From the NCBI GenBank assembly GCA_964472295.1, contig CAYYJQ010000002.1, positions 32,074 through 96,073 on the forward strand: a stretch of 64,000 bases of DNA, written 5' to 3'. Below, one piece after another: positions 3,116-60,522 of this stretch. The notes under the pieces were generated by a model. The model saw only the letters and a list, made by a program, of their open reading frames with translations, did not search any database and was not told the DNA's origin. The position numbers and the translations under genes are program-made. Each line of letters starts with the position of its first letter. Position 1 is the first letter of the stretch. This DNA is from an uncultured Thermodesulfobacteriota bacterium. Its GTDB lineage: Bacteria; Desulfobacterota; GWC2-55-46; JADFVP01.

Positions 3116-3180
3116 GATTAACCCCTGGCTTCAGATATGATAGACACGTTGAGAGCGCCCGGGTATTTCATAAGGGACCT

Positions 3181-3208
3181 CTCCTTAATTCAGGGACGAA
3201 TTAAGGAG
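3181..3208. repeat. hairpin CTCCTTAATTC-AGGGAC-GAATTAAGGAG, member of a motif family also at 59901..59930 and 60042..60069
   Basis: Perfect 11-bp stem. The loop is the reverse complement of the GTCCCG/GTCCCT loops of the copies near the porin gene. It lies about 90 nt 5' of the minus-strand start at 3115. Confidence 0.6.
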
Positions 3209-3294
3209 AAACCAACCTTTAGAGACAGCAAGAGGAGTATGCTTACGAATTAAAGAGTCCTCTATTCATAAAGCCGCCTCCATGCCTTGTTGAA

Positions 3295-7973: not shown

Positions 7974-8042
7974 GAATAAACGAAGACCCATCTTATACAA
8001 CCCCACGAAGTCCACATAATAACCAACAAGGTTATGGAAGGT

Positions 8043-8062
8043 CTCTTTAATTCAGACTTTCC
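8043..8062. promoter_or_regulatory. CTCTTTAATTCAGACTTTCC motif 5' of the FG-GAP/BNR/NPP/GH operon
   Basis: It shares CTCTTTAAT with 59901..59909 and AAT(T)CAGACTTTCC with the direct repeats at 60172..60200. Confidence 0.4.
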
Positions 8063-8109
8063 AACGGTGAAAATATGCGCCGCCATCTTCAAGGTTTGTC
8101 AGCCCTTGA

Positions 8110-8140
8110 AAATGCAAAAAAACCGCGTTTTTTTGCATTT
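8110..8140. repeat. 31-bp palindrome AAATGCAAAAAAA-CCGCG-TTTTTTTGCATTT
   Basis: Perfect 13-bp arms. A similar A-tract/CGCGG/T-tract palindrome GAAAAAGAAAAAA-CGCGG-TTTTTCTTTTTC lies at 60074..60105. It sits in the 400-bp spacer between the EPS locus and the secreted-enzyme operon. Confidence 0.6.
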
Positions 8141-8414
8141 CATCTCCCCTTATTTCAAGGACGAACTAAGAGGAGGTTCCCTATATTAAAAAAACAATGT
8201 AGCCATATGCTACGGCATTATACATAATTTCAAGATATTTTGCAAGCCGTTGCCCCATGGAGGGAAGGCATCATTAACCATATTTTACAGGCCCCTCCAG
8301 TAGCCCATGACCTGAACCTGGTTTACGCTACGATAGAACCCATGGCCAAACAGGGACCTTCAAAATGGAGAGTTTCCCATGATTTTCCTGAGTCGTACAA
8401 CATCTCCCTTCGTA

Positions 8415-53470: not shown

Positions 53471-55852
53471 TCAACCCGCGATTCGTTCCTTCCATGGGTC
53501 CCGTACAACGGCAAGGGCGGAAGAGAGGCGTTGCAGGAGCCTGGCTCTCCCAGGCGCGTCCTCCACCACGGCCTTTTTCACGGCCTCAAGGCCAACTCGT
53601 TCAATAAACGTAGCGGTCCTCTCTCCATAATGGGCCTCTTCGCGATAATACTGGAGAAATGCCCCGGCAATCTCGCGTACTTCATCGGCTGTCTTTACGG
53701 TGCAGAGGATCTCGGCCCCCCGCGTCTTTGTGCCGCCGCAGCCGCCGACATAAATCTCCCAGCCGCCCGATATTCCCGTTATGCCTATATCCTTTATCGC
53801 TGTCTCGGCGCAGTTTCGCGGACAGCCCGTAACTCCCATCTTCACCTTGGCGGGTGTCCAGAGCCCCTCGAACTCCTTCTCAAGGGCCATGCCGAGGCCC
53901 ACGGAGTCCTGCGTGCCGTACCTGCAAAAAGTCGACCCCACACAGGTCTTTACGGTGCGAAGGGCCTTTCCATAGGCATAACCCGAGGGCATGCCGAGGT
54001 CTTTCCAGACACGCGGAAGGTCTTCTTTTTTTATACCAAGGAGATCAAGACGCTGGCCTCCTGTTACCTTCACGAGGGGCACATGGTACTTCTCGGCAAC
54101 CTCGGCTATGCGCCGTAGTTCCCTGGGCGTGGTAATGCCTCCGTACATCCTCGGCACAACGGAGAAGGTCTTGTCCTTCTGGATATTTGCGTGGGCGCGC
54201 TCATTTACCACCCTTGATGTGGGGTCGTCCTCGCTCTCTCGGGGCCAGACCATGGAGACATAGTAGTTTATGGCGGGCCTGCACCTGTCGCACCCCACGG
54301 TCTCCCAGCCAAGGGAATCCATGACAGCCATGACAGAGGTAAGCCTGTTATCGCGTATGTTCCTTATAAGGTCATCCCGCGTATAACGTGTGCAGGCGCA
54401 GATGGCGCGGTCCTCGCCCCCGCCCTGAAAATCAGAGCCAAGTACTGCCTCGAGTATCTGCTCAACGAGCGTTCCGCATCCGCCGCAGGACGTTGCGGCC
54501 TTTGTCTCGCGCTCCACGTCTTCGCGCGTGAAGAGGCCCTTTTCCTCTATGGCCTTTACGATTTCGCCCTTTGTCACTCCGTTACAGCCGCAGATAATGG
54601 CATCATCAGAGAGGGCGTCCACTGAGGCCGTGGCCCTCGCGGAGAGGCCCTCGCCAAAGAGTATGGTGCCCCGCTTCTCAGTGATGTCATTCCCGTCAAT
54701 AAGGTGCTGAAAGAGACGCGGCCCGTCGCTGGTCTCGCCGTAGAGGAGTATTCCCTCTATCCTACCGTCCCTTATGAAGAGTTTCTTGTACGTGCGAAGC
54801 CCCCTGTCCGAGAACTCGATGGTCTCAACGCCAGGGCCGGTCTCTACACTCCCCGCGGAATATAACTCAATGCCCGGGACCTTGAGTTTTGTTGAGAGGG
54901 GTTTATTCACAAAATAAAGCCGCGCGTCCCCAGCAAGGTGGTTGGCAAGGACACGGGCCTGCTCAAAGAGCGGGGCAACAAGGCCGAAGGTCAGGCCCCT
55001 ATGCTGGACGCACTCGCCAACAGCGTATACGGCAGGGTCATAGGTCTGCAAGGTGTCGCTCACCACTACGCCGCGCTCGCAGTATATGCCCGAGGCACGG
55101 GCAAGGACCATATTGGGCCTGATTCCAGTAGAGAGGACTACGACATCAGTCTCAAGGTGGCTGCCATCAGAGAAGGTAATCCCCTCGACCCTCTCCCTGC
55201 CCGTAATCTCCGTGGTCTTCGCTCCAAGGCGTATCTTCATGCCCCGCTTCTCGAGGTCTTCCTTGAGGAGCGCACCGGCCTCGGCGTCGAGCTGACGCTC
55301 CATGAGCCGGTCCATGAGGTGTACTACCGTAACCTCAAGGCCAAGGTCCATGAGCCCCCTTGCCGCCTCAAGGCCCAGAAGCCCGCCACCAAGGACTACT
55401 GCGCGTCTGCTCGCGGCGGCCTCGCGCTTAAGGCGTTCGCAATCCTCGATGTTACGAAAGGGGATTACCCCTTCCTTATCTATCCCATCTATGGGGGGCA
55501 CAAAGGGGACCGAGCCCGTGGCGAGGATAAGGCTGTCATAGGCGGCCTCCGTGCCGTCCTCGGAGACGGCCACGCGGCGGCTCCTATCTATCTTCTTAAC
55601 AGGACTCCCCGTATGGAGCGTAATCCCCCGCTCTTCATACCACTCAAAGGCATTGAGTGTTATATCTTGAAGGGTCTTCTCGCCCGTAAGGAGCGATGAG
55701 AGAAAGACCCTGTTGTAGTTGGGGTGGCGCTCCTTGCCGAATACCGTTATCTCGTAACGCTCGGCGTCAAGGCGCAGTATCTCCTCGATACAACTCGTGC
55801 CTGCCATACCGCCACCTATGACAACGAGTTTTTTTCTTGTGTTCTTCTTCAT
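53471..55852 (-). CDS. nirB: assimilatory NAD(P)H-nitrite reductase large subunit
   Basis: The likely start is the ATG at 55852 (MKKNTRKKLVVIGGGMAG). FAD/NAD Rossmann folds, BFD-like [2Fe-2S] CGCNGVTKGEI, and siroheme/4Fe-4S motifs CVGSTFCRYG and TGCPRNCAE. Confidence 0.8.
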   Translation of the reverse strand: MKKNTRKKLVVIGGGMAGTSCIEEILRLDAERYEITVFGKERHPNYNRVFLSSLLTGEKTLQDITLNAFEWYEERGITLHTGSPVKKIDRSRRVAVSEDGTEAAYDSLILATGSVPFVPPIDGIDKEGVIPFRNIEDCERLKREAAASRRAVVLGGGLLGLEAARGLMDLGLEVTVVHLMDRLMERQLDAEAGALLKEDLEKRGMKIRLGAKTTEITGRERVEGITFSDGSHLETDVVVLSTGIRPNMVLARASGIYCERGVVVSDTLQTYDPAVYAVGECVQHRGLTFGLVAPLFEQARVLANHLAGDARLYFVNKPLSTKLKVPGIELYSAGSVETGPGVETIEFSDRGLRTYKKLFIRDGRIEGILLYGETSDGPRLFQHLIDGNDITEKRGTILFGEGLSARATASVDALSDDAIICGCNGVTKGEIVKAIEEKGLFTREDVERETKAATSCGGCGTLVEQILEAVLGSDFQGGGEDRAICACTRYTRDDLIRNIRDNRLTSVMAVMDSLGWETVGCDRCRPAINYYVSMVWPRESEDDPTSRVVNERAHANIQKDKTFSVVPRMYGGITTPRELRRIAEVAEKYHVPLVKVTGGQRLDLLGIKKEDLPRVWKDLGMPSGYAYGKALRTVKTCVGSTFCRYGTQDSVGLGMALEKEFEGLWTPAKVKMGVTGCPRNCAETAIKDIGITGISGGWEIYVGGCGGTKTRGAEILCTVKTADEVREIAGAFLQYYREEAHYGERTATFIERVGLEAVKKAVVEDAPGRARLLQRLSSALAVVRDPWKERIAG

Positions 55853-55943
55853 CTCATTAACCTCGAAGACGCCTGGCGTCGGCTCATAACCAGGACCAGA
55901 GAGTTTTATCCCTCCTGGAGAGGCGGGGGCCACCGAAGTGGGC

Positions 55944-55997
55944 CGCAAAAAACCATTTAAACAGGCGAGGGGCGCGGGGAAAGACCCCGCGCCCCTC
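55944..55997 (-). terminator. rho-independent terminator after amt copy 2
   Basis: 13-bp stem GAGGGGCGCGGGG-AAAGA-CCCCGCGCCCCTC, followed on the minus strand by TGTTTAAATGGTTTTTT. Confidence 0.6.
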
Positions 55998-56021
55998 GTA
56001 TCTTTCCTTAATTTGTCTATC

Positions 56022-57296
56022 TCAGAGGCTATATCCGCTCTCGCCGTGAAGCGCGTAGTCAAGGCCGGCCACCTCGTCCTCGTCAGTGACCCTGAGGCCA
56101 ACCACAAGGTCAACTATCTTGAGGATTATGAAGGTAGCCACAGCCGCAAGCACCATGGTGGCCACGACACCTATAATCTGCGCCTTCATCTGCCCCGGGT
56201 TGCCAAAGAAGGCACCCTTTGCCCCTACGGAGGCGAAGAGCCCCGTGGCCAGCGCCCCCCAGGTACCGCCAACGCCGTGTATGCCAAAGGCGTCAAGGGC
56301 GTCGTCATAACCAAGGGCGGGTTTTACAATAGCCACCATGAAGTAGCAGATAACTCCACCAACAGCACCGATGATGATGGACGATACAGGCCCCACAAAG
56401 CCAGCCCCGGGAGTAATGGAGACAAGGCCGGCCACGGCGCCAGAGACAACGCCAAGCACAGTGGGTTTGCCCCTGTGAGCCCACTCCACAAATACCCAGG
56501 CAAGGGCCGCGGCGGCGGAGGCCGTGTTTGTCGTGACAAAGGCCATGGCCGCTATGCCGTCTGCCGCAAGGGCGCTCCCCGCGTTAAAGCCAAACCAGCC
56601 AAACCAGAGTATGGCGGCGCCAATGACCGTAAGGGTCATGTTATGGGGCGGCATGTGCTCGCGCGGATAGCCCCGCCTCTTTCCAAGGACTATGGCCACG
56701 ACAAGGGCCGATATGCCCGAGCTTATATGAACTACCGTGCCGCCGGCAAAGTCCAAGGCCCCCATGCTACCTATCCAGCCCCCGCCCCAGACCCAGTGGC
56801 ATATGGGGTCATATACAACGGTGGTCCAGATGAGGCTGAATATGATAACAGCGGAAAATTTCATTCTACCGGCTACTGCTCCGGTGATGAGGGCTACGGT
56901 AATGATGGCGAACATTCCCTGAAACATCATGAAGATAAGGTGCGGGATGCTGCCCTTCGCCTCCATGCCCACATGGGCAAGCCCAAAGTACTTAATGCCC
57001 CCGACAATGCCACCAAGGGCGTGGGGCCCAAAGGATAGCGAGTATCCCCAGAGGACCCATTGAACGCTAATCAGGCAGAGCAGGAAAAAACTCTGCATGA
57101 TAGTGGAGAGGACATTTTTCTGTCTTACCATGCCCCCGTAAAAGAGGGCGAGCCCGGGGGTCATGAACATCACAAGGGCCGTTGATACGAGTATCCATGC
57201 CGTGTCACCTGCGCTTATGGAGCCCCCCTCCCCCGCAAAGGCCGTGCCCCCGAGGGCAATGAAAAGAAACAAGACCAATGATGCCTTTTTGAGCAA
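56022..57296 (-). CDS. amtB: ammonium transporter (Amt family), copy 2
   Basis: Signal peptide. 11 TM helices. DFAGGTVVH and FGWFGFN Amt signatures. TTG start. Confidence 0.85.
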   Translation of the reverse strand: MLKKASLVLFLFIALGGTAFAGEGGSISAGDTAWILVSTALVMFMTPGLALFYGGMVRQKNVLSTIMQSFFLLCLISVQWVLWGYSLSFGPHALGGIVGGIKYFGLAHVGMEAKGSIPHLIFMMFQGMFAIITVALITGAVAGRMKFSAVIIFSLIWTTVVYDPICHWVWGGGWIGSMGALDFAGGTVVHISSGISALVVAIVLGKRRGYPREHMPPHNMTLTVIGAAILWFGWFGFNAGSALAADGIAAMAFVTTNTASAAAALAWVFVEWAHRGKPTVLGVVSGAVAGLVSITPGAGFVGPVSSIIIGAVGGVICYFMVAIVKPALGYDDALDAFGIHGVGGTWGALATGLFASVGAKGAFFGNPGQMKAQIIGVVATMVLAAVATFIILKIVDLVVGLRVTDEDEVAGLDYALHGESGYSL

Positions 57297-57372: not shown

Positions 57373-59857
<2,485 letters not shown>

Positions 59858-59897
59858 CTTGTCTCCTCTTCTTGCCCCGGTTTTTTATCTTGAGGAA

Positions 59898-60212
59898 CCT
59901 CTCTTTAATCCGTCCCGGAATTAAGGAGAGACGGGAAAGAAAAAAACGCTGTTTTTCTTTCCCTCACATTTTCAAGAACTTACAGTTATAGAAAATCTCA
60001 ACACGTCCCGGCGTTGCTGGAACATCTGAATTAAGGAAGCTCTGAATAATTCGTCCCTGAATTATTCAGAGACGAAAAAGAAAAAACGCGGTTTTTCTTT
60101 TTCTCACATTTTCAATAACTTACAGTTATCGAAAATGGCAACACGTCCATGTGTTGCTGGAAAGTCTGAATTAATCAGACTTTCCTTAATCAGACTTTCC
60201 TTTCTTATCCCG
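59898..60212. repeat. tandem 139-bp direct repeat (2 body copies, 3 hairpin modules) in the leader of the porin-glnK-amt operon
   Basis: Unit 1 starts at 59935 (GAAAGAAAAAAACGCTGTTTTTCTTTCC...) and unit 2 at 60074 (GAAAAAGAAAAAACGCGGTTTTTCTTTTTC...). The units contain ACTTACAGTTAT(A/C)GAAAAT and GCAACAC-N6-GTGTTGC. The hairpin modules lie at 59901..59930, 60042..60069 and 60164..60200. Confidence 0.7.
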
Positions 60213-60339
60213 AAGGTCATCCATATCTCCCCCCCTGCCCCGGGCGCGCCGCGCCGCGCTCCACCTGCCAACCGCCGTCATGACAATCAGGAGGGAGACG
60301 AATAAGGACATGCCTACTCGTCAATTCCCTTCATATAAC

Positions 60340-60355
60340 GCAACTTTGGTGCCAC
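60340..60355 (-). promoter_or_regulatory. sigma-54 (-24/-12) promoter for the porin-glnK-amt-amt operon
   Basis: The minus strand reads TGGCAC-CAAAG-TTGC, a perfect match to TGGCAC-N5-TTGC, about 480 nt 5' of the porin start. An NtrC-family activator gene is present in the window. Confidence 0.55.
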
Positions 60356-60439
60356 AATGGGCCTGTTTTAAAAAACTATTATTTTTTAAATAGTTAGAGT
60401 GATTAAAGAAAAGATGGGAAGGTATTTGCGAGGGCAATA

Positions 60440-60456
60440 TGCCTATATTTTAGGCA
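60440..60456. promoter_or_regulatory. candidate enhancer-binding-protein site (6-5-6 palindrome) upstream of the sigma-54 promoter
   Basis: TGCCTA-TATTT-TAGGCA lies about 95 bp 5' of the -24 element. An AT-rich palindrome AACTATTATTTTTTAAATAGTT sits in between, at a position expected for IHF-induced bending. Confidence 0.35.
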
Positions 60457-60522
60457 TCGGTTGAGCATAAAAGGGCTTTATTGAGGCAGTTTTGTAAGAG
60501 TCTGATTGATCTTCCGGGGCGC

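Follow-up and report, generated by a model that had tools for sequence, protein, structure and literature searches.

The leader of a porin-glnK-amt-amt operon was analyzed in a stretch of 64,000 nucleotides from an uncultured Thermodesulfobacteriota bacterium (contig CAYYJQ010000002.1, positions 32,074 to 96,073; hereafter the window, meaning this whole stretch, whose numbering is used throughout unless another locus is named). Genes for a TorF/Gcw_chp-type porin, a P-II protein, two Amt proteins and a NirB-like reductase follow one another on its minus strand (Table 1). They are preceded by a sigma-54-type promoter, which is the sole match to TGGCAC-N5-TTGC in the 64 kb (0.06 expected), and a start near 60328 gives a leader of about 470 nt. 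An earlier reading of the letters alone (the sequence-only reading) had named both the promoter and the leader length, and had described in the leader two tandem units of 139 bp, several palindromes and three flanking hairpin modules. Here these repeats are interpreted, probably correctly, as two adjacent copies of a small (about 140-155 nt), non-coding, dispersed element of five hairpins, inserted as a block of 311 nt.

Repeat units of the leader

The tandem array was recovered by Tandem Repeats Finder at 59906-60174 (1.9 copies, 84% matches, score 398), with a period of 140 and not 139 nt, together with a perfect 15-nt repeat (2.1 copies) at 60171-60202. A repeat search returned a direct repeat of 99 nt at a spacing of 140 nt (86%) and all palindromes and inverted repeats that had been named, GCAACAC-N6-GTGTTGC included; among them are I6 (60040-60071, arms 13/13, loop 6 nt), I10 (60159-60185, arms 11/11), I5 (60107-60137, arms of 14 nt) and the A-tract/T-tract palindromes I4 and I7. 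The leader RNA, whose structure the sequence-only reading had suggested predicting, folds far better than shuffled sequences (-174.7 kcal/mol, z = -5.1, 0 of 100 shuffles).

On the sense strand each unit reads as a run of five hairpins, H1 to H5. H1 consists of GGAAAGTCTGA/TCAGACTTTCC, H2 of GCAACAC-AUGGAC-GUGUUGC, H3 of CAUUUUC...GAAAAUG, H4 of an A-rich arm, CCGCG and a U-rich arm, and H5 of CUCUGAAUAAUUC-AGGGAC-GAAUUAUUCAGAG. The three supposed flanking modules are no extras, being H5 of each unit and H1 of the first unit, so that the phase of 59935/60074 formerly given to the units is arbitrary. Over H2-H4 the two units are 86% identical, their H4 and H5 stems differ in a compensatory manner, and H5 of unit 2 is nearer to a solo hairpin elsewhere in the window (3k hairpin, Table 1) than H5 of unit 1; the tandem pair thus arose either by local duplication long ago, with its shape maintained, or by two insertions or conversions. 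Only short mechanical open reading frames (ORFs) lie over the block, and the small ORFs on the leader at 60104-60271 (minus) and 60135-60305 (plus) were treated as such.

Table 1. Coordinates of the operon, its leader and the repeat copies of the organism.
Feature	Position	Strand	Details
TorF/Gcw_chp-type porin gene	59857-59117	minus	Pfam PF09694 and named homologs
P-II gene (glnK)	about 59051-58713	minus	
First Amt gene	58716-57373	minus	
Second Amt gene	57296-56022	minus	
NirB-like reductase (mechanical ORF)	53471-56113	minus	same gene run
Sigma-54-type -24/-12 promoter TGGCACCAAAGTTGC	60340-60354	minus	TGGCAC-N5-TTGC; predicted start near 60328
Palindrome ATGCCTAAAATATAGGCAT	60439-60457		about 110-130 nt upstream of predicted sigma-54 start; outside repeat
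Native part of 5' leader	60201-60328	minus	ends in left direct repeat GATAAGAAA; aligns with short ortholog leaders up to GGATAAAAAAAC
Left direct repeat GATAAGAAA	60201-60209		
Insertion of 311 nt	59890-60200	minus	order: 15-nt extra copy of H1 5' arm, unit 1, unit 2
Repeat unit 1	60036-60187	minus	covariance model 158 bits; alone folds as five hairpins
Unit 1, H1	60159-60185	minus	
Unit 1, H2	60138-60157	minus	loop AUGGAC
Unit 1, H3	60107-60137	minus	
Unit 1, H4	60074-60103	minus	
Unit 1, H5	60040-60071	minus	loop AGGGAC
Repeat unit 2	59895-60047	minus	covariance model 139.2 bits; H1 as 3' arm only
Unit 2, H2	59999-60016	minus	loop CGGGAC
Unit 2, H3	59967-59996	minus	
Unit 2, H4	59933-59963	minus	
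Unit 2, H5	59898-59931	minus	loop CGGGAC (59912-59917)
Right direct repeat GATAAAAAA	59881-59889	minus	8/9 match to GATAAGAAA; putative target-site duplication
Shine-Dalgarno GAGGAGA of porin gene	59862-59868	minus	read from sequence
ATG of porin gene	59855-59857	minus	read from sequence
8k copy	8034-8179	plus	single copy, 125.8 bits; 5' region of minus-strand FG-GAP/ASPIC gene
3k hairpin	3177-3210	plus	solo H5-type CTCTCCTTAATTC-AGGGAC-GAATTAAGGAGA between two minus-strand genes; 19.1 bits, model positions 117-146
Degenerate copy (L018b)	L018:13287-13431		35 bits; 3.4 kb beyond window start

Empty sites at orthologous loci

Three orthologous loci of close relatives (L001, L002 and L003/L004; porin homologs 84-86% identical) share the gene order glycogen-synthase-like GT5, GATase, porin, glnK and amt. 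Their spacers keep the upstream palindrome, the -24/-12 promoter, the first ~30 transcribed bases, an A-rich stretch and the Shine-Dalgarno sequence before the ATG, the promoter being conserved in L001, L002 and L003. In the alignment the repeats are missing from all three, in which only about 110-150 nt separate promoter and ATG. The leader studied here is indeed unusual for glnK-amtB. The additional 311 nt are placed exactly where the orthologs read GGATAAAAAAAC, between two direct repeats, and the empty sites hold a single GATAAAAAA or GGATAAAAAAAC at the insertion point. Contigs of this strain that come from two further samples (L016, L017) carry an identical spacer of 665 nt with an insertion of the same length, and the tandem copy number does not vary among the contigs of the three samples.

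We consider it likely that the block was inserted after the lineage had split from its closest sequenced relatives. According to the sequence-only reading, a transcription start 3' of the repeats and their absence from orthologs would together have marked them as a recent neutral duplication. The repeats are absent, and they lie inside the transcribed region provided that the sigma-54 promoter is used; the insertion of a repeat element fits these findings better than a neutral duplication.

In the GATase-porin spacer of one relative (L003:2415-2618, also in L004) a different tandem repeat was observed upstream of the promoter, with 2.3 copies of 87 nt and 96% matches. It gave no covariance-model match and is unrelated to the five-hairpin family; repeats are thus drawn to this spacer in at least two lineages.

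Dispersed copies in two phyla

Copies were found by blastn, nhmmer and a covariance model (R1) built from six copies, and about 80 kb of this organism were examined. Four loci with five units or fragments were detected there, namely the leader, the 8k copy, the 3k hairpin and the degenerate L018b. The 8k copy has a conserved sigma-70-like promoter (8245->8217) on one side and the start of an FG-GAP/ASPIC gene on the other, and is antisense to that gene because the copy is on the plus strand in the 5' region of a minus-strand gene; its H5 loop reads AAGGAC and its H2 loop is without GGA. It is absent from a syntenic relative (L021, 75% protein identity), where the spacer measures 275 vs 415 nt and is too diverged for the insertion borders to be defined. 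The 3k hairpin is absent from the same relative as well (spacer 80 vs 179 nt), and the covariance model found zero copies in 43 kb of relatives.

Outside the phylum, a metagenome scan with a degenerate core pattern gave three copies in Gammaproteobacteria (L013, L014, L015), to which the covariance model added a second one in L015 and one each in L025 and L028. These six copies, two of them within 8 kb of L015 and the others one per contig, reside in uncultured Gammaproteobacteria near Thiohalobacterales-type organisms, as judged from taxon names and named homologs. One of them (L015a) fills a mlaE-mlaD gap of 157 nt and overlaps the mlaE stop codon, whereas the gap is 2 nt in L025 and L028; another (L028c) occupies an ABC2-bolA spacer of 245 nt, which is 16 nt in L025. 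Filled and empty sites can be paired at five places in both phyla (leader, 8k copy, 3k hairpin, L015a, L028c). A blastn search of plasmids with two copies gave no match, the one match among viral contigs reached 13.7 bits with the model and is not a member, and a scan of genome contigs with the H5 20-mer yielded tandem arrays of Colwelliaceae and chance matches only.

Units measure 135-208 nt, most of them 140-155 nt. They are sense to their host genes at six loci (leader, L018b, L015a, L015b, L025c, L028c) and antisense at four (8k copy, 3k hairpin, L014 and, upstream of infA, L013), and have FG-GAP, mla, infA, bolA and glgA genes as neighbours. Short direct repeats flank the leader block (GATAAGAAA/GATAAAAAA), L028c (TTAACCGGT/CTAACCAGT), L015a (TTATGTTTGG/TTATAATGG) and L014 (ACTTAA/ACTTAA), of which only the last pair is perfect; none are evident at the 8k copy or L013. 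The ends of the window copies, GGAAAGTCTGA ... TCAGAGCTTCC, are complementary in 9/11 positions, and the gammaproteobacterial termini differ from them.

Some further repeats and annotations were noticed on these contigs. In L025 (12290-12480) the mlaB(STAS)-ABC spacer is filled with long, almost perfect hairpins that belong to a different, unrelated repeat, where L015 has a copy of the five-hairpin element. In an unclassified metagenome-assembled genome (CC_bin8; L005:2900-3100) GGGGACGAATTAATTC occurs twice in tandem with an inverted GGGAAAGTCATCCCGGGGACGAATT about 100 nt upstream, and this GGGAC-containing repeat reaches 12 bits with the model. Gene callers placed an ORF of 70 aa on the element copy L025:3689-3901 and one of 61 aa on the spacer L004:2565-2750, both of which are probably spurious annotations; annotators should be aware that such small 'genes' are called on copies of the element.

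Conserved structure and GGA loops

Folded one by one, the eight full-length copies tested all give essentially the same series of hairpins. In a model-guided alignment of eight copies, three of which stood outside model building, 91% of the pairing cells can pair as compared to 46-51% with slid partners, compensatory changes occur in 27 of 45 pairs, and 0 of 500 shuffles reach any of the measures. This covariation signal is as strong as in many accepted RNA families; the stems covary as pairs, and the element is non-coding. Stem cells contain 19 G-U vs 7 A-C, and the named strand folds slightly better in seven of eight copies folded singly, so that one strand appears to be the folded one, be it as RNA or as single-stranded DNA. 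Sequence itself is conserved in the outer stem of H3 (CAUUUUC/GAAAAUG), in H4 within its A- and U-tracts, and in the H2 and H5 loops.

GGA is present in the H2 loops of eight of ten copies (AUGGAC, CGGGAC, AGGGAC, AGGGAU, ACGGAU twice, and others) and in the H5 loops of ten of eleven (AGGGAC twice, CGGGAC, AAGGAC, CAGGAU, AGGAU, CGGAU, AUGGAA, ACGGAA, GGGGAU). The loops take the form NNGGAN and are nearly always closed by C-G, as in AC-AUGGAC-GU, C-ACGGAU-G and C-CAGGAU-G. The consensus of CsrA ligands from in vitro selection (SELEX), RUACARGGAUGU, forms a hexaloop with pairing of AC to GU, and the repeat of CsrB, CAGGA(U/A/C)G, is exposed in hairpin loops (PMC7652899); at the level of sequence, the C-G-closed NNGGAN loops match this motif. 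In L025 and L028 the copies have gained extra GGA hairpins, located inside H4 or H5 or between the two. In the leader the last GGA, in the H5 loop of unit 2, lies 49 nt upstream of the GGA of the Shine-Dalgarno sequence. Such a spacing is compatible with dual-site binding of CsrA.

The Colwelliaceae/Thalassotalea arrays that contain the H5 20-mer consist of 51-nt tandem units with two GGA-loop hairpins each (TTAATTC-AGGGAC-GAATTAA and ..ACCAGGGATGGT..), situated at L010:6379-6750, L006:~4500, L007:~7690 and L009:1495-1632. The L010 array directly follows the terminator of a GGA-hairpin-rich stretch (CUACAUGGAUGUAG, GCAGGAUGC), which from its letters looks like an unannotated Csr/Rsm-type small-RNA locus; no Rfam family reached the gathering score on this stretch.

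Promoter region and neighbouring genes

The palindrome upstream of the promoter aligns with TGCTTAAAAAATAGGCA in L002/L003 and with TGCCTAAAGTTTGTGCA in L001, and is a likely candidate for the enhancer site (of the type bound by bacterial enhancer-binding proteins such as NtrC) of the porin-glnK-amt-amt operon. A pair of NtrB/NtrC-like genes is located downstream of the nirB-like gene (L016:19625-21509). The native leader comprises a very G+C-rich run at 60222-60262 (GGAGCGCGGCGCGGCGCGCCCGGGGCAGGGGGGGAG, including a CGCGC x3 microrepeat), and a comparable G-rich stretch at this position was seen in L001 only. The NirB-like mechanical ORF and the end of the second amt gene have 92 nt in common (56022-56113); the true start of the former is probably further downstream, because the gene calls of L016 give 863 aa and not 880.

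Discussion

Taken together, the leader repeats are probably a dispersed element that entered a formerly short leader, and the five-hairpin element is best understood as a new, hitherto uncatalogued family of intergenic repeats that are small, structured and mobile, without an Rfam match. Transcription from the conserved sigma-54 promoter would make the block part of the mRNA, in which it would form some ten stable hairpins. These would leave free the Shine-Dalgarno sequence, which lies 25-30 nt 3' of the last hairpin, and the operon should therefore still work, its nitrogen control presumably coming from the promoter and the upstream palindrome and not from the repeats. In its sense orientation the leader RNA is predicted to present four hexaloops with GGA, such as CsrA/RsmA binds; binding of CsrA by these loops is plausible, and binding of a CsrA/RsmA-type protein would be the most likely molecular activity of the element. 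A secondary effect on the stability or translation of the porin mRNA may exist because the last loop GGA lies 49 nt from that of the Shine-Dalgarno sequence.

Several points weigh against this account. Transcription through the 311-nt block is assumed, and the alignment behind the covariation counts was fitted to the model, a bias towards the structure. Flanking direct repeats match imperfectly (7-8/9) and are unclear at several copies, terminal inverted repeats are weak, without conservation from one phylum to the other, and neither an insertion sequence (IS) nor a transposase was found in the sequence examined (~80 kb of genome plus the loci); mobility of the element is something that we infer from the insertion pattern only. 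With respect to CsrA, the stems of 7-14 bp are longer than those of most SELEX ligands, which mostly have <=4 contiguous pairs (PMC7652899). The mixed orientation is likewise unfavourable, since antisense copies keep their GGA loops, which is not expected under selection for CsrA binding within the host mRNA, and a tblastn search of the window and the loci (about 80 kb of genome) did not recover csrA itself.

These observations also bear on a reading that extends the dispersed-element account and does not contradict it, in which the element is a mobile carrier of CsrA/RsmA-binding hairpins: sense insertions into 5' leaders would bring genes, here porin-glnK-amt, under Csr control, with the last GGA hairpin bridged to the Shine-Dalgarno GGA, or the transcribed copies would jointly titrate CsrA. 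It draws on the C-G-closed NNGGAN loops, which persist on H2 and H5 despite a complete change of the stems, on loops that match published motifs exactly or closely (CAGGAUG in L014 and L015a, ACGGAU in L015b and L025c, ACAGGGACGU in L013), on the additional GGA hairpins of L025 and L028, on the occurrence of the H5 20-mer in Colwelliaceae GGA-hairpin arrays beside a GGA-rich, terminator-ended stretch, and on the 49-nt distance. Besides the very stable stems and the failure to find csrA in the DNA examined, it is weakened by the lack of a bias towards sense orientation (6 vs 4 loci) and by the Rfam models of Rsm/Csr RNAs, none of which matched (RsmV 13.3 bits, cut-off 100). We regard it as possible, though short of probable. 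Somewhat more doubtful still is its furthest form, a cross-phylum mobile RNA module whose selected payload would be the pair of CsrA/RsmA-binding hairpins, recruiting genes to the Csr regulon or serving as a distributed CsrA sponge.

An unlikely alternative holds that the element acts at the level of DNA, as REP/BIME, ERIC or Correia palindromes do in part, offering sites to nucleoid or recombination proteins or forming cruciforms or single-strand hairpins for its own propagation, with the GGA loops read by a mobilising enzyme. Both orientations occur and the loops are kept regardless of host transcription; the H3 stem CATTTTC...GAAAATG and the A-tract/T-tract of H4 are conserved as sequence beyond pairing; and the pattern of insertions and empty sites suggests mobility. 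On the other side, the surplus of G-U over A-C and the strand-specific loops favour one folded strand, which single-stranded DNA would satisfy too, no transposase or RAYT-type gene was found nearby, and the REP hallmark GTAG is not present.

That each unit is an independent small-RNA gene, as the sequence-only reading had considered, is very unlikely. A conserved structure of ~150 nt with GGA loops as in Rsm/Csr small RNAs would suit such a gene, and in L015b and L025c H5 is terminator-like (GCCC...GGGC followed by UUUUU). Most copies, however, have no U-tract after H5 and no terminator of their own, no promoter-like site was found in the leader block, and some copies run over the stop codon of the gene before them or fill gaps between the genes of operons.

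The proposal of a cis-regulatory RNA was borne out as far as a conserved, strand-specific, RNA-like structure is concerned; as a feature specific to this operon it failed, the repeats being absent from the three orthologous leaders and belonging to a dispersed family. An RNA that ties glnK-amt to nitrogen status, be it a riboswitch, an attenuator or an ANTAR-type antitermination target, is largely refuted and highly improbable, even though the position in a long sigma-54 leader would befit it. Copies stand beside FG-GAP, mla, infA, bolA and glgA genes, also in antisense. An Rfam scan of the leader at a permissive threshold gave nothing at gathering score, neither a glutamine riboswitch nor a glnA RNA, for which a search had been advised; the best match, gyrA RNA (29.5 bits vs a cut-off of 45), was judged a structural chance, and the gammaproteobacterial copies likewise gave none above gathering. 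H2 followed by CAUUUUC was flagged as terminator-like, and the H2 hairpins with their weak U-tracts are the only such calls in the block; as an intrinsic terminator or attenuator H2 is weak, with only four U residues that are sequestered in H3.

ANTAR regulation reportedly has a precedent in Geobacter GnfR. Its targets consist of a pair of short hairpins that lie side by side and bear A1/G4 hexaloops, the second hairpin overlapping an intrinsic terminator (PMC3369931). In the leader, A1/G4 applies to two of the four hexaloops, AGGGAC and AUGGAC, both of unit 1, whereas those of unit 2 start with C (CGGGAC) and do not fit; the hexaloop hairpins are 21-90 nt apart on stems of 7-14 bp, and none overlaps a real terminator. 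A tblastn search with the ANTAR consensus, a weak test, found no ANTAR-like coding sequence in all DNA examined. For want of adjacency and terminator overlap, and given the dispersal of the element, an ANTAR target was rejected.

Duplicated NtrC-type activator sites, which the dimer-like geometry of GCAACAC-N6-GTGTTGC had brought to mind, are scarcely credible, as the palindromes lie 170-330 nt downstream of the -24/-12 element, are absent from orthologs that retain the promoter, and have stems that covary freely between copies, which is a signature of pairing and not of DNA sequence read by a protein, while a conserved palindrome already occupies the canonical upstream position.

For the operon it follows that its long, repeat-rich leader is not to be read as nitrogen-specific regulation, and as an explanation of this locus the dispersed-element account is fairly ordinary. 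As a family the element deserves follow-up. Here a structured repeat is common to a Thermodesulfobacteriota lineage and to uncultured, sulfur-oxidiser-like Gammaproteobacteria. CsrA is functional in Geobacter, a related lineage, in which RNA antagonists are only predicted (PMC11934962). If the loops do bind CsrA, post-transcriptional regulatory sites would be spreading as a mobile element, and a handle on CsrA control in deltaproteobacteria-like lineages would be gained; if moreover the module reading were true, a non-gammaproteobacterial lineage would have an RNA-based CsrA antagonist or target set spread by transposition.

Comparison with known systems

Among known repeats, the Correia elements (NEMIS) of Neisseria and bacterial miniature inverted-repeat transposable elements such as Chunjie in Geobacter uraniireducens offer themselves for comparison. 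They share with the five-hairpin element a length of 100-160 nt, a non-coding nature, many dispersed copies in either orientation, a position between genes, in operons or in 5' leaders with co-transcription with the neighbours (here presumed), presence/absence polymorphism in close relatives and short flanking direct repeats (here mostly imperfect). In contrast to them, the terminal inverted repeats of the five-hairpin element are weak and not conserved across the family, its conserved part is the internal five-hairpin structure with two loop motifs, neither a parent IS nor a transposase is identified for it, and its copies occur in two phyla.

REP/BIME, ERIC and pneumococcal BOX elements are structured, palindromic intergenic repeats with covarying stems in transcribed spacers too, and the present element resembles them in being modular, with tandem reiteration of modules (cf. 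boxB). Unlike them, the five-hairpin element shows no conserved GTAG-type head in its alignments, its unit is composed of five different hairpins instead of one palindrome, its GGA loops are strand-specific, and no RAYT gene was seen in the sequence examined.

With CsrB/CsrC, RsmX/Y/Z and CsrA-binding leaders it has in common a series of hairpins, GGA loops, C-G-closed hexaloops, a number of GGA hairpins that varies by duplication, and the motifs CAGGAUG, ACGGAU and ARGGAU (PMC7652899). It differs from the Csr/Rsm small RNAs in being dispersed in both orientations and inside operons and not a single-copy gene with promoter and terminator of its own, in its long stable stems, and in lacking an Rfam Csr/Rsm match. 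ANTAR targets are alike in having A1/G4 hexanucleotide loops in several hairpins and in the leader of a nitrogen-assimilation operon (PMC3369931), and unlike in that the element's hairpins have long stems, do not lie side by side and overlap no terminator, and in that its occurrence is not confined to nitrogen genes. In its spread across phyla, its weak termini as opposed to a strongly conserved interior, and its CsrA-type loops, the five-hairpin family is unusual.

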